From the IMG/VR virus record IMGVR_UViG_3300042507_002672: a DNA stretch of 37,813 nucleotides. One strand, 5' to 3'. The position numbers were made by a program, and so were the translations under genes. Each line of letters starts with the position of its first letter. Positions within the stretch are counted from its first letter, which is position 1. The notes beneath the pieces were generated by a model. That model was not told the origin of the DNA. It saw only the letters and a list, made by a program, of their open reading frames with translations, and made no database searches. The DNA is from a virus. Positions 2,494-34,709 of this stretch are shown here, one piece after another.

Positions 2494-3362
2494 TACGCGG
2501 TTTCCTTCTTTGCTTTGAGTTCCTTGATCGTGCATCCACGACCGTCTTTGACGATTTCGATTCCGTGGCCGTAACCGCGGCGCATGTCGGGTTCCATGAG
2601 GGCCTTCAGATCCTTTGCGGCCTTCTCAAATTCCTTGGCTTGGTCGCGGAGCATCAGCCAATCCGAGGCGCGGACAGCCCATGTGTTATTGGCGCGCATA
2701 TCAACGTCTCGGGTCGGCGGAACGAGTTCCGGCGCGTTGATGGTCTTGGCCGTGTCAATCTCGATATCCATCACGACATGGTTCCAGAACACTTGTTCGA
2801 CCTTGATAAGGTGGGCGATGTAATCCTCGTCGCGCTCGACCTTGCGCCATTCGTGGCGATCCGAGCCGATGAAAACCGAGAGGTAGCAAGCCTGCGCGCC
2901 GTAGACGGCCATGTTGTGCTGTAGCTGGGGGAAGTAGCGCACCAAGGCATCATCGAACTTGGTGAACGAGTTGCAGTGCTTGCATTCCACAATGTCGATG
3001 GCGTCGTTATCGCCACCCGTGAACCCGTCGATATTGGCGCGCATGAACGCATGTTCGGGGTGGATGTGAGTGCCACCAGGCAGGACCGGCTTGCCGATGG
3101 CGTAGGAAAGCCACAGGCGGTTAAGAGGTTCGGTCCATGAGCCCATCTGGACAGGCAGAACCTTCGTCAGATCGTCGGACGCCTGCCGGCCAAGCTTCTC
3201 AAGGCGCAGAACTTCCAGTTCCTCGCGCACGCCCTTTGCGATTTTCACCGCGTCCGAGCCGCCGACGCCCAGCGCGCGGGCTGAGTGCCAGTCCGGCCCG
3301 TGGTCCAGTAGACCCCCCGCTTCCATATCCCCGATGTGCATGTTCATTTCCTTCTGTTTCAT
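2493..3362 (-). CDS. YqaJ/lambda-Exo-type recombination exonuclease (PD-(D/E)XK)
   Basis: GVGGSDA near the N-terminus, D...VECKH, and QLQHNMAV. This is the typical YqaJ viral recombinase exonuclease motif order. It sits directly upstream of the annealase. Confidence 0.85.
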   Translation of the reverse strand: MKQKEMNMHIGDMEAGGLLDHGPDWHSARALGVGGSDAVKIAKGVREELEVLRLEKLGRQASDDLTKVLPVQMGSWTEPLNRLWLSYAIGKPVLPGGTHIHPEHAFMRANIDGFTGGDNDAIDIVECKHCNSFTKFDDALVRYFPQLQHNMAVYGAQACYLSVFIGSDRHEWRKVERDEDYIAHLIKVEQVFWNHVVMDIEIDTAKTINAPELVPPTRDVDMRANNTWAVRASDWLMLRDQAKEFEKAAKDLKALMEPDMRRGYGHGIEIVKDGRGCTIKELKAKKETA

Positions 3363-3529
3363 CGTCGGGGATCGACCCCAACTCGTCAGTGCATCGCAAA
3401 TTCACGAAGCCGAGCACGGCTATACAATCCCAACCAAAGCGCGGAACCAGTACGGGATCCATCCCCATCTTTTGTGGAACTTCTTACGCATTGGCTTGCC
3501 TTCGATGAGACACATGGAAAGAGGTACGC

Positions 3530-3613
3530 TCACGTCACAACCCAAAGGGCAAAGAACAGACCCATGATGGCCAACAGGCTTAGAAAGTTGCCGGCGACTT
3601 GATAGAAGTTCAT
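3530..3613 (-). CDS. Possible 27-aa hydrophobic peptide (MNFYQVAGNFLSLLAIMGLFFALWVVT)
   Basis: Hand translation. The ATG lies 3 nt after the stop of 3617..3895 and the product is a single hydrophobic stretch. It is below the ORF-track size cutoff. Confidence 0.3.
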   Translation of the reverse strand: MNFYQVAGNFLSLLAIMGLFFALWVVT

Positions 3614-3616
3614 GGC

Positions 3617-3895
3617 CTACTCCGCCGCGTCCAGGCGTGCTTGTGCGTCGTTTACAAGGTCGACCCACATCTGAAGTTCTTCGTCTTTCAGTGAGATGCG
3701 CCACGTAACATTGTCACGGCGCTTTCCCTCGGGGAGTGCGTCACGCGCTGCGATATCTTCGGCAATCTCGCGGGTGATCCGGTCGCGGTTCATGTTCCCG
3801 ACGCGGACGCGTTGCTGGTATCCCATGGCGTCCAGCTTGGGGGCCGGATCAATAGCCGCCAGGATCGGTGCAAAAATCGGATGTACGTTGTTCAT
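3617..3895 (-). CDS. Hypothetical early protein (92 aa)
   Basis: ORF track, tightly packed in the leftward operon. Confidence 0.6.
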   Translation of the reverse strand: MNNVHPIFAPILAAIDPAPKLDAMGYQQRVRVGNMNRDRITREIAEDIAARDALPEGKRRDNVTWRISLKDEELQMWVDLVNDAQARLDAAE

Positions 3896-3898
3896 GGC

Positions 3899-4069
3899 CT
3901 AGCCCTCAATCCGTTCGCAGCCTGCGCCGCCGCGCCAGACCTGGGTGGCCGCGACGAACGCTTTGGTGCGAAGCCACTTGGCCCAATTCTTCGCCTTGCG
4001 TTCAGTCTCGAAGTAAGCGGAACGTTCGATTGCGCCGGTCTGGTTGGTAAAGGTGACTTCGTAGATCAT
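3899..4069 (-). CDS. Hypothetical 56-aa protein, first gene of the leftward operon
   Basis: Hand translation gives MIYEVTFTNQTGAIERSAYFETERKAKNWAKWLRTKAFVAATQVWRGGAGCERIEG. GGAGAG lies about 6 nt upstream of the ATG. The stop is 3 nt before the next ATG. It is below the ORF-track cutoff. Confidence 0.5.
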   Translation of the reverse strand: MIYEVTFTNQTGAIERSAYFETERKAKNWAKWLRTKAFVAATQVWRGGAGCERIEG

Positions 4070-4095
4070 GTGGGCTGCTCTCCGTCTGTGTGTTC

Positions 4096-4210
4096 GTGTC
4101 CAGAGATTGCGCCTTGTGCAAGCCAGTGTCCAGAACTATTTTGGCTCGCGGTGCAAAATAATTTGCAACCCCAAAAAAAACCGCTTGCAATCCCTTAGCA
4201 CAAGGCGCAA
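4096..4210. promoter_or_regulatory. Divergent control region with candidate operators
   Basis: A 15-nt inverted repeat, ttgcgccttgtgcaa (4107-4121) versus tagcacaaggcgcaa (4196-4210), matches 14/15 as reverse complement. A 9-nt direct repeat gtgtccaga (4096-4104 and 4126-4134) flanks the first copy. There are several TTGCAA/TGCAA words. Confidence 0.5.
4163..4191 (+). promoter_or_regulatory. Candidate rightward sigma70-type promoter
   Basis: TTGCAA (4163-4168), a 17-nt spacer, then TGCAAT (4186-4191). The predicted start would fall inside the 4196-4210 operator-like repeat, about 25 nt before the HTH gene. Confidence 0.35.
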
Positions 4211-4219
4211 GGTTCCGGC

Positions 4220-4429
4220 ATGACATTAGATCAATACCTGACACGCAACAAAATGACCGCAACCGAGATGGCTCAGACCCTCGGCCGCGCCATTTCCACA
4301 ATAACCCGCATCCGTAAGGGTGAAATCAAGCCGGATTTCGACACAATTCAAGAACTTGTCGATGTGACGGAAGGCCTGGTTACGCCCAATGACTTTTTTG
4401 TGATGCCGGCCAAGAAGACGCGCAAATGA
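4220..4429 (+). CDS. Cro/XRE-like helix-turn-helix regulator (69 aa)
   Basis: MTATEMAQTLGRAISTITRIRKGEIKP is a classic HTH segment. It is the first gene of the rightward unit, next to the operator-like repeats. Confidence 0.8.
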   Translation: MTLDQYLTRNKMTATEMAQTLGRAISTITRIRKGEIKPDFDTIQELVDVTEGLVTPNDFFVMPAKKTRK

Positions 4430-4438
4430 ACCAGACTA

Positions 4439-4671
4439 CCGCGCATGGACCCGCACTTGCGCGGCGCTCTCATGGGGTATCAGTCCCCGGCGCTCCCATG
4501 AGAGCAACCTTTTCAGACGCGTGCGCTGGCCCCCTGGCCCACGCCGCCCTCGGTAGTCACTCCGTCCACTGGTCCTCAGCTACCGAGGGCACCCCCATCC
4601 GTGATGCCCGGTTGGCATTGGCTGTTTGGCAGGGTCAGTACGCTGCCTGTGATCGTCTCCACGACTTGAGC
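4439..4671 (+). ncRNA. Hairpin-dense leader; candidate cis-acting RNA or small RNA
   Basis: Perfect stems found by eye: 4439-4445/4458-4464 (7 bp), 4466-4476/4495-4505 (11 bp), 4519-4523/4540-4544 with inner 4528-4531/4536-4539, 4546-4556/4580-4590 (11 bp), and 4628-4632/4643-4647 (5 bp). A 101-aa ORF also spans the region (see findings). Confidence 0.35.
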
Positions 4672-4729
4672 GCCCGTTACTTGCAACCGTGTGTAAGCTA
4701 CCCACGGAAGCCGGTAACGGGCCTTTTTT
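4672..4729 (+). terminator. Intrinsic terminator-like stem-loop plus T6
   Basis: gcccgttac (4672-4680) pairs with gtaacgggc (4714-4722), with an inner stem 4687-4691/4703-4707. The structure is followed after one base (c4723) by tttttt (4724-4729). Confidence 0.6.
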
Positions 4730-4756
4730 AGGCATAGAACACAAGGGGACGGGGGA

Positions 4757-4909
4757 ATGTTTAGGACAATCAAGCGTTTCTGGACCCGGTACGTACTACG
4801 ACGCGAAGCCGCTCGCCTTTCTACAACTGAGCGCGCGGCGCGGGGTGTGGCTCCGGTTCAACGGATTAACAAAGGCCGTCCCGTTCATGTTCCAGCGGGG
4901 AAAAAATAA
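4757..4909 (+). CDS. Possible 50-aa arginine-rich peptide
   Basis: Hand translation gives MFRTIKRFWTRYVLRREAARLSTTERAARGVAPVQRINKGRPVHVPAGKK. GGGGGA lies directly upstream of the ATG. Its TAA overlaps the ATG of the VRR-NUC gene (taatg). Confidence 0.35.
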   Translation: MFRTIKRFWTRYVLRREAARLSTTERAARGVAPVQRINKGRPVHVPAGKK

Positions 4910-5346
4910 TGTCGGCGGGCTTCATGATTCCGGCAGCTAACGTGAAGCGTGCCACGGCTAAGAAAGCACGGGCAAATGGGAAGCGGGCGCGTAGACGCCC
5001 CGAAGCTCTCATCCAAGAGAGCGTGTGCCAGTACCTTGCCCTTCAGGAGCGCCAGGGTCGGCTGCTCTGGTTTGCGGTCCCCAATGGTGGATCGCGCAAC
5101 CTGTTGGAAGCGGTGAACTTGAAGCGGCAAGGAGTTCGCGGGGGCGTTCCAGACCTGGTAATCGTGCCCAAGGTCGGACCTGTCTGCTTCATCGAACTCA
5201 AATCCAAAGATGGCACGCTGTCCAAGCTGCAAAGCCTCTGGCTTGAGAGCCTGTCTTTGTACGGATGCCCCGTAGCTGTGTGCCGGTCACTTGATGAGGT
5301 TATGCAATTCCTATTCGAGCAGGGCGTTATTCGAGAAGTCTTCTAA
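4909..5346 (+). CDS. VRR-NUC domain nuclease
   Basis: GVRGGVPDLVIV ... CFIELKSKDGTLSKLQSLW is the PD-(D/E)XK core (D...ELK...Q..W) typical of VRR-NUC proteins. Confidence 0.85.
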   Translation: MSAGFMIPAANVKRATAKKARANGKRARRRPEALIQESVCQYLALQERQGRLLWFAVPNGGSRNLLEAVNLKRQGVRGGVPDLVIVPKVGPVCFIELKSKDGTLSKLQSLWLESLSLYGCPVAVCRSLDEVMQFLFEQGVIREVF

Positions 5347-5407: not shown

Positions 5408-5647
5408 ATGGCAAAGACAGAAAGAACGACGGACGGCCTACGTCTCGCTTTGTTCGAAGAACTCGACAATCTTCGTGCCGGCAAGACCACCCCGCAAAAG
5501 GCGAGCGCAATGGCCCGATTGGCGTCCACCATCGTCATGGCGAGCAAGCTTGATATTGAATATCAGCGGTTCGTATCTGCCGGCGAAAGCCAGCTGACTG
5601 CAGGAAGCCCTCGCGTCCCGAGCCTTAAGCTTGTGAAAGCCGCTTAG
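5408..5647 (+). CDS. Hypothetical protein (79 aa)
   Basis: Start taken at MAKTERTT (AAGGA upstream) within track ORF 5291..5647. Confidence 0.6.
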   Translation: MAKTERTTDGLRLALFEELDNLRAGKTTPQKASAMARLASTIVMASKLDIEYQRFVSAGESQLTAGSPRVPSLKLVKAA

Positions 5648-6103
5648 GTGATTTTGCCCCTCCAGCGTTGGCATGACCATCCGGGCGGCGTGTCCTTAGA
5701 GGACGCGCTTTTATTGGTTTGGTTGATGCCGGAATGGAATTGGATGCGCGATGAAGGCGTCCGCGCCGATTCTTTGCTGGAGGGGTTGCCGTCTCGGTTT
5801 AGATCGCACGAATTTAGGTTGAGCAAAGACCCAATGTTGCCGAAGCGCGCTGTTTCAAGCGCCGTGTCGCGCCCGTACGTGAGATGCCAAGCGTGCAATC
5901 GCAGAAAAATTGTATGGGCGGTCAATCACACCAGCAAACAGAACCACATACTTGCCGAGCTTCGCCGCTTTAATTCAGACATTTACGACGCGATTACGGG
6001 TCGGACGCACGTTGCTGTGTGTACGTGGTGTTCAAAGAAATACCGCGAAGAACCAGAGATGTTTTTGGTTCGATTGCTGAAAAAACAGGTCAAGGCCGCA
6101 TGA
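5648..6103 (+). CDS. Hypothetical protein with a CxxC...CxxC zinc-ribbon-like motif
   Basis: RCQACNRR and CTWCSKK lie about 55 aa apart. The start is GTG, directly after the previous stop. Confidence 0.55.
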   Translation: MILPLQRWHDHPGGVSLEDALLLVWLMPEWNWMRDEGVRADSLLEGLPSRFRSHEFRLSKDPMLPKRAVSSAVSRPYVRCQACNRRKIVWAVNHTSKQNHILAELRRFNSDIYDAITGRTHVAVCTWCSKKYREEPEMFLVRLLKKQVKAA

Positions 6104-11345: not shown

Positions 11346-11647
11346 CCAAGACAATCCCCGAAATAGACGATGAGATGGTTGAGCGTGCGTTTAGGTGGCT
11401 GAACGAAAACGCATGTTTTGGCGGTGAGCCGTTTTCGGAAAGCCGCCGTCAGGTTCGATGTGCATTGGAAGCCGCCCTTACAGAACCCGAGATAGAGGTG
11501 ACTGAGACCATGGCCGAAGCTGGTTGGAGCGCGTCTTGCGAGGGATACAACAGCGCCATCAAAAGGAATGCCGCCGTCTACCGCGCCATGGTTAAGGCCG
11601 CGCCTGGGGGTATTCCTCACGCCATTAACTCTGTAACGATAATATGA
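11342..11647 (+). CDS. Hypothetical protein (101 aa)
   Basis: Start at MTKTIPEID (ATGA overlap) within track ORF 11255..11647. Confidence 0.6.
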   Translation: MTKTIPEIDDEMVERAFRWLNENACFGGEPFSESRRQVRCALEAALTEPEIEVTETMAEAGWSASCEGYNSAIKRNAAVYRAMVKAAPGGIPHAINSVTII

Positions 11648-12390
11648 AAATAGGCTTCATCGGCTTATCAAAAATTGCTGCCGGTTATGAGGATCCCAAA
11701 GAAACGCATTTAGGGGCGATCCTGCGCGCCAATCCAAAAGCCAACCTCGTATGCTTTGACCCTGATAAAAACGCCCAGGTCGCCGCAAAACAAAGATTTG
11801 GGACCATCCACATCGCGGATGAATTAGACGCCTTGAAATGCGATGTGGTGCTTATATCTTCCCCGACGCAAACCCATTATCAGCACGTTACAAAAGCCCT
11901 CACACAACGGCACAAGCCCGTAGTGGTTTGCGAAAAGCCCCTGGCTCCCACATACGAGCAGGGCCGCGAGCTTGTGGAAAGGGCAGATCAATCCGGTCAA
12001 ACCCTAATCGTCAATTTTCAGCGCCGATGGCTTCCGGGTGTTTTGCAATGGTGCGCAGCTGCCAACCAAGGCCAATTCGGTAGACGAAGGGCGAGCGTGT
12101 TTTACGTTGGTCCCGAAACACGGGAAAGGTTTATCGCCTCGGCAAGCCACGCCTTGGACATTGCCGGGGCGTGTGGCGTGACGGCAGAGAATATCGACGT
12201 TTACCCGTATTTTGATTTTTCTGTCGAGGTTAGGTGCGAGCAAAGCAGCCTAACACTCCGCAAAATCGGGGACCTTGTGCCCGTTTGGGAAAATATCTTT
12301 AACCACATCGCCAAAGGAGATTCATTGCCGTGCCGCGCCGCAGACCATCTCCCCGGAATGAAACTCGTGGACGAACTGTGTCCAGCTTGA
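11644..12390 (+). CDS. Gfo/Idh/MocA-like NAD(P)-dependent oxidoreductase
   Basis: N-terminal Rossmann start MKIGFIGLSKIA. SSPTQTHYQHVTKAL...KPVVVCEKPLA contains the family-typical EKP motif. Confidence 0.7.
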   Translation: MKIGFIGLSKIAAGYEDPKETHLGAILRANPKANLVCFDPDKNAQVAAKQRFGTIHIADELDALKCDVVLISSPTQTHYQHVTKALTQRHKPVVVCEKPLAPTYEQGRELVERADQSGQTLIVNFQRRWLPGVLQWCAAANQGQFGRRRASVFYVGPETRERFIASASHALDIAGACGVTAENIDVYPYFDFSVEVRCEQSSLTLRKIGDLVPVWENIFNHIAKGDSLPCRAADHLPGMKLVDELCPA

Positions 12391-12489
12391 CCAAGAAAAC
12401 CGCAAAGAATGACGCCACAGCCAAGCGCACAGGCATGACCTGGAGCTTCCGGCAGAAAAAATACGTCACCCTCAGGGAATGGTGGGACC

Positions 12490-13110
12490 TTGGCTAAGAA
12501 ACTCAAAACCGTAGCACTTCTCGCCCGCAAGCCTGGATTGGAAATTCTTGACGCGCTTTTGTCGGATCCCCGGATCGATTTGAAAGTGGTCTACACTTAC
12601 AACCACCTTCCAAAATCTGAGAGCCCGAAGGAAAACAATTCCATCGGCTACACCGTAACGCAGCGCCCGGAATGGCCGGTGTTCAAGGAAAAGTGCGAAG
12701 CTGCCAGCGTGTTGATTTGGTCCGAGGTTGGATCAAACGGCTTTAATCCAACAAACGACCGCCATGCGCCCTATGATTTGCTTCTGTGCTGCAATTGGCG
12801 CCAGGTTGTGCCTGAATGGATACTCAGCGCCGCGCGCCACGCCATCAACATTCACCGTGGCGACCTTCCAAAATACCCCGGCAAGCGCCCTGTCCTTCAG
12901 GCCGTAGAGGTGGGGGAAGCGAGAGTAGCCATCACCGCGCACAAAATGACCGGGGTTATCGACGGAGGCCCAGTGATTGCAAAGGTTTACGCGGACGTTG
13001 TTAAGGCTTCGACGTTTGCGGAATCTGAAACGCTGACGCGAGACGCGCTTGTACCGTACTACGCGCCGTTAACGAGATTTATTGTAGATATTGCTTCCCG
13101 TGAAACCTAA
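12490..13110 (+). CDS. Formyltransferase-fold protein (PurN/Fmt N-domain/sugar N-formyltransferase-like)
   Basis: AINIHRGDLPKYPGKRPV matches the N.H...LP...G core. It is followed by HKMTGVIDGGPVIAK (D.G.I). The size (206 aa) fits single-domain formyltransferases. The start is TTG. Confidence 0.7.
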   Translation: MAKKLKTVALLARKPGLEILDALLSDPRIDLKVVYTYNHLPKSESPKENNSIGYTVTQRPEWPVFKEKCEAASVLIWSEVGSNGFNPTNDRHAPYDLLLCCNWRQVVPEWILSAARHAINIHRGDLPKYPGKRPVLQAVEVGEARVAITAHKMTGVIDGGPVIAKVYADVVKASTFAESETLTRDALVPYYAPLTRFIVDIASRET

Positions 13111-13192
13111 CCAGTGGAGTGTGACTACATGAAAACTATACGCCGTGGCCGGCCAAAATCAGACCGCCCCAAAGTAACCCAGGGAGCCTTAA

Positions 13193-13486
13193 ATGCTTGT
13201 CCATCTCCGAACCATTAAGGCCCTCCAAACCCAGTCCATGAGCTACCGGACACCGCCCAAGCCCCACCACGACAACGCGGGCTATCAGCCGGCGCTCTGC
13301 CCGATCAACTGGACCCCCAAAACATGCCAGTGGATCGAGGGAACGCCGAGCAAGATGGAACTACGGCGCCACGGGTCAGAACGGTTTAAGTGCAACGCCG
13401 CGGTTCAACCACAATCGAGCTATTGCGAAGAACACCATTCGAAATGTTGGACCGTGTTGACACCCCCGGAAAAACAAGCACGGTAA
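13193..13486 (+). CDS. GcrA C-terminal-domain-like protein (97 aa)
   Basis: TCQWIEGTPS....RFKCNAAVQPQSSYCEEHHSKCW follows the GcrA C-terminal pattern C.WP.G.P....F.C.......YC..H. No GcrA-type N-terminal HTH is recognisable. GGGAG lies upstream of the ATG. Confidence 0.55.
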   Translation: MLVHLRTIKALQTQSMSYRTPPKPHHDNAGYQPALCPINWTPKTCQWIEGTPSKMELRRHGSERFKCNAAVQPQSSYCEEHHSKCWTVLTPPEKQAR

Positions 13487-13556
13487 ATCGAATGACCAAA
13501 GCCCAACTCCTGCGGACAGTCTCGCCGCTCCCGTTCCGAATTTATTACGCGCGCCT

Positions 13557-34199: not shown

Positions 34200-34403
34200 A
34201 TGGAAGCTAAATCAATCTTTGCCAGCCGCACCCTTTGGGCCAACGTCATTGGTGGTGCCGTAGCCATTGCGACGGCCTTCGGCCTGGACCTCGACATTGA
34301 CGCCGAAGCGCAGACCGCAATCGTCGGCGGCATTATGGCCGTTGTGAACATCGTCCTGCGCTTCATGACCTCGGCCCCCGTGACGGTAACGAGGGCCGAA
34401 TGA
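34200..34403 (+). CDS. Holin (two transmembrane helices, 67 aa)
   Basis: Hydrophobic segments TLWANVIGGAVAIATAFGL and TAIVGGIMAVVNIVLRF. It lies between the endolysin and the spanins. Confidence 0.65.
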   Translation: MEAKSIFASRTLWANVIGGAVAIATAFGLDLDIDAEAQTAIVGGIMAVVNIVLRFMTSAPVTVTRAE

Positions 34404-34591
34404 CGGCAATTATCGGCCTCGGAATTGCGGGCCTCGCGTTCCTGGCTTTGTACCTGTTCGGGCGCAAAGCCGGGAAAGACGCGGCTAAGGCCAAAACCTT
34501 GGAGAAAACCATTGAACAAATTGTGGATGCTGTGCGCCCTGCCACTGATGTTGAGCTTGACAGGGTGCGGAGCAAGTACAGGCGGGATTAA
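34400..34591 (+). CDS. i-spanin-like protein (N-terminal TM helix, 63 aa)
   Basis: MTAIIGLGIAGLAFLALYLFG is followed by a charged helical region. It has an ATGA overlap with the holin. Confidence 0.6.
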   Translation: MTAIIGLGIAGLAFLALYLFGRKAGKDAAKAKTLEKTIEQIVDAVRPATDVELDRVRSKYRRD

Positions 34592-34709
34592 AGCCGCCTG
34601 CGCTGTGTTTACGGCGCCGTCGTGGTCAAGCCGGGATACCCCTGAAACCCAGGTCTGGATGGAAAACTATGCAGTCCGATATGAAAGACTTTGCGTCGAT
34701 GCTCGATAG
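34527..34709 (+). CDS. o-spanin-like lipoprotein (60 aa), overlapping the i-spanin 3' end in another frame
   Basis: MLCALPLMLSLTGCGAS has the lipobox LTGC. It is short with conserved Cys residues, in an overlapped spanin arrangement. Confidence 0.65.
   Translation: MLCALPLMLSLTGCGASTGGIKAACAVFTAPSWSSRDTPETQVWMENYAVRYERLCVDAR

Follow-up and report, generated by a model that had tools for sequence, protein, structure and literature searches.

In lambdoid phages the early rightward promoter is followed by cro, then by an RNA element (nutR) and then by a first terminator (tR1) that gates the delayed-early genes; the boxA of lambda has a CGCUCUUA-like consensus. The same order was found in the DNA analysed here, the 37,813 nucleotides (nt) of IMG/VR virus record IMGVR_UViG_3300042507_002672 (the window), where a Cro-like gene is followed by a hairpin-rich RNA element and a terminator; the latter is a strong intrinsic one, whereas lambda tR1 is Rho-dependent. 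The timing of the passage from immediate-early to delayed-early expression is poorly understood in temperate phages outside the well-studied lambdoids, and RNA-based antitermination devices are few (put, EAR and conAn2). The put RNAs of phage HK022 suppress later terminators by acting in cis on RNA polymerase, at its beta' zinc-binding domain, and need no protein factor. They measure ~70 nt and form two stem-loops, putR lying ~270 nt downstream of the PR start (PMC9378689). The conAn system of Gram-positive conjugative plasmids combines an RNA of 260-600 nt, conAn2, with the protein ConAn1 (PMC8191782). Ribosomes repress intrinsic terminators at or within the end of an open reading frame (ORF) and uncoupling restores termination; this was shown for lambda tR2, and pyrBI attenuation rests on the same ribosome-terminator principle (PMC4824070).

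The element is predicted to be a modular RNA of ~300 nt with seven hairpins (H1 to H7), which forms the rightward 3' continuation of the cro message and ends in an intrinsic terminator. It follows the Cro-like helix-turn-helix (HTH) gene, the first gene of the rightward operon (4220..4429, + strand, 69 amino acids (aa); Pfam HTH_26/HTH_3; PHROG transcriptional regulator). An ORF of 101 codons (4426..4731, + strand), here called ORFx, covers the entire structured RNA and the terminator. As an earlier note on this DNA had reported, ORFx and the HTH gene overlap in an ATGA, which holds the start codon of the former and the TGA stop of the latter. The TAG of ORFx (4729-4731) begins on the last T of the T-run. 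H7 separates cro from the delayed-early genes and would, by analogy of position, be the functional counterpart of lambda tR1.

Relatives were recovered by two routes. A protein search with ORFx gave 23 clusters of 76-161 aa, and DNA was obtained in this way for nine contigs (L001, L058-L062 and L064-L066). Independently of ORFx, the neighbouring VRR-NUC and Cro proteins led to the IMG/VR contigs L030, L053 (the same contig as L032) and L004 (the same contig as L031 and L052, and near-identical to the window). The DNA set had 12 members, nine from the ORFx search, which returns open frames only, and the unbiased members being the window, L030 and L053. Two further relatives, P0015 and P0020, are known from protein sequence alone.

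Every relative, folded singly, gave the same series of modules, and the stems were kept by compensatory change. For H1-H3, a plain MAFFT alignment had 93.9% of the cells paired and 8 of 29 pairs changed on both sides, and sliding the partner by 1-3 columns reduced pairing to 27-52%. After fitting to covariance model R1 (H1-H3), 98.4% of the cells were paired, 11 of 29 pairs had changed on both sides and none of 500 shuffles attained the score. At the base of H4 (MAFFT) the values were 99% and 8 of 10, again with 0/500 shuffles attaining the score. With curated arms, pairing was 100% both in H5, where 4 of 5 pairs had changed on both sides (variants AUGCC, GCGAG, ACGGG and AUGGG), and in the base of H7, which occurred in eight versions (8/9 pairs changed on both sides; 0/2000 arm shuffles). 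The inner stem of H7 was fully paired, with compensatory changes round a conserved RAAGCCUCC loop, and in every relative the H7 hairpin (-27 to -40 kcal/mol) directly abutted a tract of U5-7. The loops of H1, H2 and H5 were near-invariant, unlike the covarying stems; CGGUU, the loop of H5, was invariant around four stem versions.

The RNA is read from the + strand, because H1-H3 contain 25 G-U cells, which equal A-C mismatches on the opposite strand, and because the U-tract stands 3' of the hairpin in the + sense only. The earlier note had taken the region for a candidate leader or non-coding RNA with an intrinsic terminator at the lambdoid nutR-tR1 position, and to this extent it is borne out: the RNA is structured, evolutionarily conserved and of the + strand. 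Where the note had allowed for a conserved protein instead, many compensatory stem changes and no synonymous-site bias were found. By these comparisons the element represents a strongly covarying RNA family new to Rfam and matching no deposited phage DNA. Rfam 15 gave no match at the gathering threshold in the whole window and, at E <= 10 over 4000-5000, just two chance-level matches of 13 bits; blastn with 4100-5000 found no match among 50,697 phage records.

A profile search of 1.5 Mb of loci found the element solely in the recovered relative contigs. Scanning viral, metagenome and genome collections for GGGGYATCAGTCCCCGGCG gave chance matches apart from L004, and the 14-mer TGGACCCGCACTTG gave at least 117 matches in public collections, all of them by chance. 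The pattern of the ribosome-binding site (RBS) of the next gene gave chance matches within a coding sequence, and the H5 pattern returned the three known IMG/VR contigs and otherwise chance matches. Since the searches outside the recovered contigs yielded chance matches, the family appears to be small, a few dozen metagenomic contigs.

All hairpins lie on the + strand. H1 (4439-4464) has a stem of 7 base pairs (bp), 4439-4445/4458-4464, and a conserved 12-nt loop, UGGACCCGCACU; two of its pairs covary (CG to AU, GC to UA) and 96% of its cells were paired. H2 (4466-4505) begins one nt after H1. Its basal stem of 11 bp (4466-4476/4495-4505, extendable) covaries, with 7/11 pairs changed on both sides and 100% of the cells paired when fitted to the model (4/11 in plain MAFFT), while the apical part GGGGUAUCMGUCCCCGGCG is near-invariant. 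H3 (4519-4544) is a two-tier hairpin with a CCCC(C) loop, in which 98% of the cells were paired and the loop-closing pair occurred in four types (CG, UA, GC and GU). H4 (4546-4590) has a base of 12 bp (4546-4557/4579-4590; 10-12 bp overall), C-rich internal loops and, in most relatives, an inner hairpin with the loop UUCCCCU. A single-stranded CCCCC spacer (4592..4596) lies between H4 and H5 (4603-4619), the stem of which (4603-4608/4614-4619, 5-6 bp) carries the CGGUU loop between conserved flanks, CCGUG...UGGC.

H6 (4628-4647; stem 4628-4632/4643-4647) is a helix supported in part, its register varying among relatives, and H6b (4648-4663; 4648-4651/4660-4663) is weak; with no single register across relatives, H6/H6b are the least certain part of the map. 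GGUCA (4633-4637) can pair with UGAUC (4650-4654) across H6, a candidate pseudoknot whose four central pairs are possible in most relatives (alignment A6, columns 44-47/60-63), the L001-type sequences and L062 being exceptions. The terminator H7 (4672-4722) is a three-tier hairpin of -29 kcal/mol with a stem at 4672-4681/4713-4722, an inner stem at 4687-4691/4703-4707 and the loop RAAGCYNCC, and it is followed by a U6 tract (4724-4729).

Within the window, the minimum free energy (MFE) of the region was well below that of dinucleotide shuffles (z = -3.47 for 4426-4760 and -4.40 for 4426-4731), and the flanks were unremarkable (z = -0.13 in the cro gene and -0.71 in the next 300 nt). Across both strands of the whole window, H7 was the strongest hairpin before any T5+ run; a simple terminator scan overlooks it, the cause being its long loop. 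The region of the element is skewed towards C over G. All the stems that the earlier note had listed by eye were present in the local MFE structure. It had overlooked H5, and inside the outer stem of H3 (4519-4523/4540-4544) the relatives favour an inner stem at 4525-4529/4534-4538 over the one that it had drawn (4528-4531/4536-4539). Its statement that such a density of stems is unique in the window failed, 34280-34680 (z = -5.45) and 5501-5800 (z = -4.07) being equally or more structured.

In 12/12 relatives the frame of ORFx ran open from the ATGA to a point 0-6 nt beyond the U-tract; 2-7 stops interrupted each of the other two frames. Over 752 distinct codon contexts this amounted to 0 stops in ORFx against 15 and 28 (43) in the other frames, with a naive P of ~4e-10. 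The ATGA on the upstream stop recurred with four unrelated upstream sequences, and a Shine-Dalgarno-like motif (AAGAAGG, GGAGA, AGGTG, AGGCGG or GGAGG) preceded the ATG by 4-9 nt. By these sequence comparisons the frame is under selection to stay open, with a coupled start and a peptide that is free in sequence. Substitution rates in ORFx were flat across codon positions (0.255/0.284/0.293), ~20% of the aligned site pairs were read in different frames, and in L001 four indels (-1, -2, -1 and -2 nt) take the reading out of frame and back into it within the nucleotides that are conserved best. The H1 loop is read as AHGPALARR in one phage and as RMDPHLRG in a second, paired amino-acid replacements follow the compensatory stem changes, and the conserved C-terminus 'GLF' corresponds to GGGCCUUUUUU of the terminator. 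ORFx had no match in Pfam or PHROG. Its product is called 'hypothetical protein' in the JGI source and occurs without a listed name in those of NCBI, ENA and Logan (clusters P0001-P0023).

The public entries of ORFx are most likely translations of a structured RNA rather than a protein family, and a functional protein is unlikely, which makes ORFx a warning case for annotation. The earlier note had dismissed the product as featureless. No protein is conserved, but to dismiss the ORF was wrong: the frame is not noise, being open in all 12 relatives, two of them found independently of ORFx, with the ATGA, the Shine-Dalgarno-like motif and the stop after the U-tract. A programmed frameshift from cro into ORFx was considered and rejected, as no slippery heptamer was present and the junction is merely CA-ATGA in four contexts.

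The modules are mosaic: types of H4, types of H5/H6 and classes of terminator occur in varying combinations, and the terminator classes are exchanged freely against the upstream modules. L062 has an insert of ~170 nt (+174 nt, positions 3905-4080) between H4 and H5. This insert is highly structured in its own right, contains no in-frame stop and leaves ORFx in frame; in P0020 a shorter insert at this site also preserves the frame. L065 keeps H4-H7, ORFx and the small gene that follows, but its upstream gene differs and H1-H3 are missing. Its positions 1-360 hold an unrelated gene (C-terminus ...DAAARAYDAAFREIHGEFARLNFPEAA), perhaps AP2-like (a guess), in place of cro and H1-H3. Another hairpin, with a CUCCCCU loop, stands where H1-H3 would be, and the ATGA start of ORFx again sits on the stop of the upstream gene, with GGAGG before it.

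The 5' arm of H7 formed no better duplex with the upstream 110 nt than shuffled arms did in 11/12 relatives (z from -0.9 to +1.2). Because the terminators are swapped and no complementary segment lies upstream, read-through would be indifferent to the terminator sequence. Two mechanisms fit such independence: modification of the polymerase, as in put/nut systems, or a ribosome trailing the polymerase. The selected frame, the coupled start and the stop past the U-tract fit the second, and the maintained frame suggests that the passage of ribosomes belongs to the mechanism. We therefore favour, if tentatively, a tR1-like conditional terminator, set in a structured leader, that polymerase would pass whenever translation by a coupled ribosome extends over it.

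Under this proposal, ribosomes ending cro would start again at the overlapping AUGA and move along ORFx, across every hairpin and the terminator, to the stop codon 0-6 nt beyond the U-tract. If a ribosome trailed RNA polymerase closely, H7 could not fold and transcription would continue. Were translation lagging or absent, H7 would fold, transcription would stop and a stable, highly structured cro RNA would be left. We infer that ORFx is translated, that its translation suppresses H7 and that the step from early to delayed-early expression is gated in this way.

The same ribosome may act on the next gene, a small basic ORF of 50 aa. Its G-rich ribosome-binding region AGGGGACGGGGGA (4744..4756, + strand) keeps GGGG-N1-2-GGGGG in all relatives, and in every relative the G-runs (4745-4748 and 4751-4755) were predicted to be paired in the read-through RNA with p = 0.8-1.0. 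Pairing is predicted with C-rich single-stranded stretches of the leader, and the CCCCC spacer at 4592-4596 is a frequent partner (in the partition function of the window, L001, L061, L062 and L064, and in the MFE structure of the window), although this pairing has no covariation support. Given this predicted pairing, translation of ORFx would also open the RBS: the ribosome would melt the C-rich segments that mask it, and translation would continue.

Leaders of the pyrBI/pyrE type share with this proposal a frame that runs through an intrinsic terminator (here ORFx, 4426-4731, and the terminator, 4672-4729, in 12/12 relatives) and the lack of dependence on terminator sequence. They differ in being short and poorly structured and in sensing UTP via pausing, whereas the frame in the window has 100 codons, crosses six more conserved hairpins with invariant loops, is predicted to be translationally coupled to cro and belongs to a phage early operon.

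Several points weigh against a ribosome-gated terminator. Both the translation of ORFx and termination at 4729 are predictions from the sequence, and 9/12 relatives come from the search that returns open frames only. In P0015 and P0020 the stop comes 13-20 codons sooner and appears to fall within the terminator hairpin. An RNA ended in the U-tract would be a non-stop message without an in-frame stop, which looks costly. A ribosome gate needs no six upstream hairpins with near-invariant loops; it gives the loops of H1, H2 and H5 no role, and they probably bind a factor, which keeps a put/nut-like mechanism alive. Finally, there may be promoters further along, with 11346-11643 and 13111-13556 as candidate gaps, so not all 30 kb need depend on H7.

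Processive antitermination of the put/nut kind is improbable in our judgement, though several observations favour it. H1 and H2, perhaps with H5, would bind the polymerase directly or via a small protein, for example the product of the 50-aa ORF, and make it resistant to H7 and later terminators, ORFx being secondary. The element stands where nutR and putR stand, after cro and before the first terminator. As in HK022 put, H1 and H2 are two adjacent stem-loops (67 nt, one base apart), H1 lies at a comparable distance (at least ~250 nt from the divergent promoter region) and no N-like protein is evident: the early ORFs that were compared with Pfam and PHROGs included none of the N or Q type. Near-invariant loops on covarying stems, as in H1 and H2, are expected of a recognised RNA, H5 resembles a small protein-binding hairpin (pentaloop, conserved flanks, covarying stem), and the small basic ORF co-occurs strictly with the RNA. 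The functional link to this arginine-rich ORF, which the earlier note had raised, is speculative. An action independent of the terminator would suit the swapped terminator classes.

The likeness to put is one of size and layout, and the earlier note, which had suggested a put/nut-like leader, was right to that extent; a match in sequence or structure and a second copy were not found. With filters off, R1 gave a best score of 10 bits (E = 1.3, in a structural gene) in the whole HK022 genome (L186), and in the window, where the H1 loop motif is unique, it found 4435-4545 alone. Put systems have putL and putR, whereas the leftward leader and the intergenic region 3355-3625 (minus strand) were unstructured (z = +1.07). 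A second putL-like copy and a similarity to HK022 were ruled out by R1 and the H1 loop motif. H1 and H2 make up just a quarter of a larger seven-hairpin unit that is single-copy and overlapped by an ORF, and L065 lacks H1-H3 yet keeps H4-H7, ORFx and the small gene.

Put and nut sites are not known to be translated, whereas this element is overlapped by a frame selected to stay open, which also sets it apart from lambda nut. Unlike a GNRA-like boxB loop, the loop of H5 is the invariant pentaloop CGGUU on a 5-bp covarying stem. Lambda N is an arginine-rich protein that binds boxB and is encoded upstream of the first terminator; here the sole basic small ORF (4757-4909) falls into no family of Pfam or PHROG and is encoded downstream of the terminator that it would need to suppress. 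As a candidate boxA, CGCUCUCA at 4465-4472 was likened to CGCUCUUA and rejected, since it is the 5' arm of H2, a covarying stem; in L001 and L030 it is replaced by GCCUAGGU with a compensating partner, and the likeness to lambda boxA is probably a coincidence.

The conAn system resembles the locus in its large structured leader opening a long operon, its adjacent small protein gene and an action that would be independent of the terminator. The gene order, however, is reversed, as the conAn protein is encoded ahead of the RNA; its hosts are Gram-positive, no homology links the two, and conAn2 is intergenic and untranslated. H7 is also long and multi-tier, which is mild evidence against a put/nut mechanism, since in the one system so examined, conAn, terminators with long stems withstood processive antitermination (PMC10325885).

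A stable RNA is likewise unlikely as the main function. It would be cro plus leader or a processed ~300-nt fragment of the 3' untranslated region (UTR), which would make the cro message more stable and protect it against Rho and RNases, or act in trans, its C-rich loops and spacers pairing with G-rich RBSs; translation of ORFx would then merely protect the nascent RNA. Multi-hairpin 3'-UTR small RNAs with C-rich anti-Shine-Dalgarno loops are the CcsR or 'cuckoo' RNAs of Alphaproteobacteria and RsaE/RoxS of Firmicutes. The locus shares with them a hairpin series downstream of a small gene, co-transcription, the terminator end and C-rich loops, and very stable hairpins with a strong terminator are the usual anatomy of stable bacterial small RNAs. 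C-rich segments recur (CCCCC in H3, UUCCCCU in H4, CCCCC in the spacer, GCCUCC in the H7 loop and CUCCCCU in L065), they are predicted to pair with the G-rich RBS of the next gene in every relative, and the region has its skew of C over G. However, G-runs find C-rich partners in any GC-rich RNA, and the long-range pairing does not covary. Unlike CcsR and RsaE, the element has loops that are not one repeated motif, no Rfam family match at E <= 10 and an open frame. No trans target was found, the H1 loop having no complement beyond chance elsewhere in the window. A purely non-coding RNA explains neither the open frame nor the ATGA start nor the stop past the U-tract.

Sensing of a ligand or factor by a riboswitch-type attenuator, in which an alternative antiterminator helix would compete with H7, is very unlikely. 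The layout does recall an aptamer and its expression platform, with a conserved structured domain, a terminator and then genes. Nevertheless, the shuffled-level complementarity of the H7 5' arm in 11/12 relatives, which led us to reject an antiterminator helix, and the swapping of terminator classes independently of the upstream modules argue against a riboswitch or classical attenuator; the entire region lies within an open frame, and no Rfam riboswitch matched. It is highly improbable that ORFx is an ordinary protein-coding gene of 101 aa whose mRNA is structured by chance. Gene callers predict it, 23 'homologues' of 76-161 aa can be collected and the frame is open in all relatives, but the flat codon-position rates differ from the strong third-position bias of cro (0.106/0.056/0.313 in eight relatives, a coding signature), the most conserved nucleotides are read in different frames among relatives, the replacements track stem compensation, 'GLF' is terminator sequence and no Pfam or PHROG family was matched. 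The weakest candidate, an element acting as DNA (a replication origin, single-strand hairpins or palindromic protein-binding sites), can be set aside as extremely improbable: the inverted repeats are equally present in DNA, but the stems covary rather than conserve their sequence, G-U pairs are frequent in the + sense only (25 cells in H1-H3), the last hairpin is a canonical + strand terminator, and the replication module sits 5 kb downstream.

The element is a covarying RNA family outside Rfam at exactly the control point between immediate-early and delayed-early genes, with an open frame as a second constraint, and the ribosome-gated terminator is a concrete, testable model of such gating in a phage decision circuit. 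It is conceivable, though on balance doubtful, that it represents a new class of early-operon switch in temperate phages other than the enteric lambdoids, a 'translated riboregulator' in which 300 nt are selected both as RNA and as open frame, the peptide is irrelevant, and passage beyond cro is decided jointly by ribosome transit, by invariant loops bound by RNA polymerase or the 50-aa protein, and by a swappable terminator. If the loops do recruit the polymerase or the small protein, this would add to put, EAR and conAn another antitermination system based on RNA, apparently the first with translation built into the element.

The window derives from an uncultivated, metagenomic temperate phage, whose terminase shares only 45-50% identity with its counterparts in phages of Stenotrophomonas, Acetobacter, Rhizobium and Bradyrhizobium. 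A divergent control region (~4070-4219) lies immediately left of the rightward operon, and the leftward genes are those of recombination and single-strand binding (YqaJ exonuclease, ERF-type annealing protein, SSB). Between 4100 and 4200 there are several TTGCAA/TTGCAC-type repeats, for example ATTTGCAACC, GCTTGCAATC and CTTGTGCAAG, which could be candidate operators for the HTH protein; a consensus scan detected no sigma-70-like promoter.

On the other side of the element, a spacer of 25 nt separates the ORFx stop from the start of the small basic ORF (4757..4909, + strand, 50 aa, MFRTIKRFWTRYVLRRE...), which always lies 3' of the RNA. Its rates per codon position (0.195/0.150/0.298) are a coding signature, and this codon bias marks it as a real gene, although it matched no family in Pfam or PHROG. 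Among the 185 loci examined, tblastn matches occurred solely in RNA-bearing ones. In some relatives the gene (MFKTIKALWTRYVLRRE...) is duplicated as two 50-aa ORFs; it lies, among others, at 6330-6479 in L001 and 4338-4487 in L058. It is followed by a VRR-NUC nuclease (4909-5346, + strand), and the delayed-early genes behind the terminator further include a helicase, a methylase and replication genes, the replication module (DUF1376/DnaT-like, DnaA_C-like) lying 5 kb downstream of the element. The + strand gene array is tightly packed and extends to ~35.1 kb. A scan for tRNA and tmRNA found none.

In the middle of the phage genome, a GFO_IDH_MocA-type NAD-binding oxidoreductase (11644-12390, + strand) and a formyl-transferase domain protein (12490-13110, + strand) form a gene pair (11644-13110) that may be a nucleotide- or sugar-modification module. 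The most structured stretch of the window is 34280-34680 (+ strand, MFE -183.8 kcal/mol) in the lysis cassette; ORF 34200-34403 there matches the PHROG holin phrog_297, and the stretch ends near a terminator-like hairpin at 34579-34600. The second structured stretch of the rightward early operon, 5501-5800 (+ strand), contains a terminator-like hairpin at 5687-5709 (10 pairs, then TTTATT), ~40 nt past the stop of ORF 5408-5647 (79 aa), which matches phrog_2044, annotated 'RNA polymerase beta subunit'; this hairpin may be a second early terminator.

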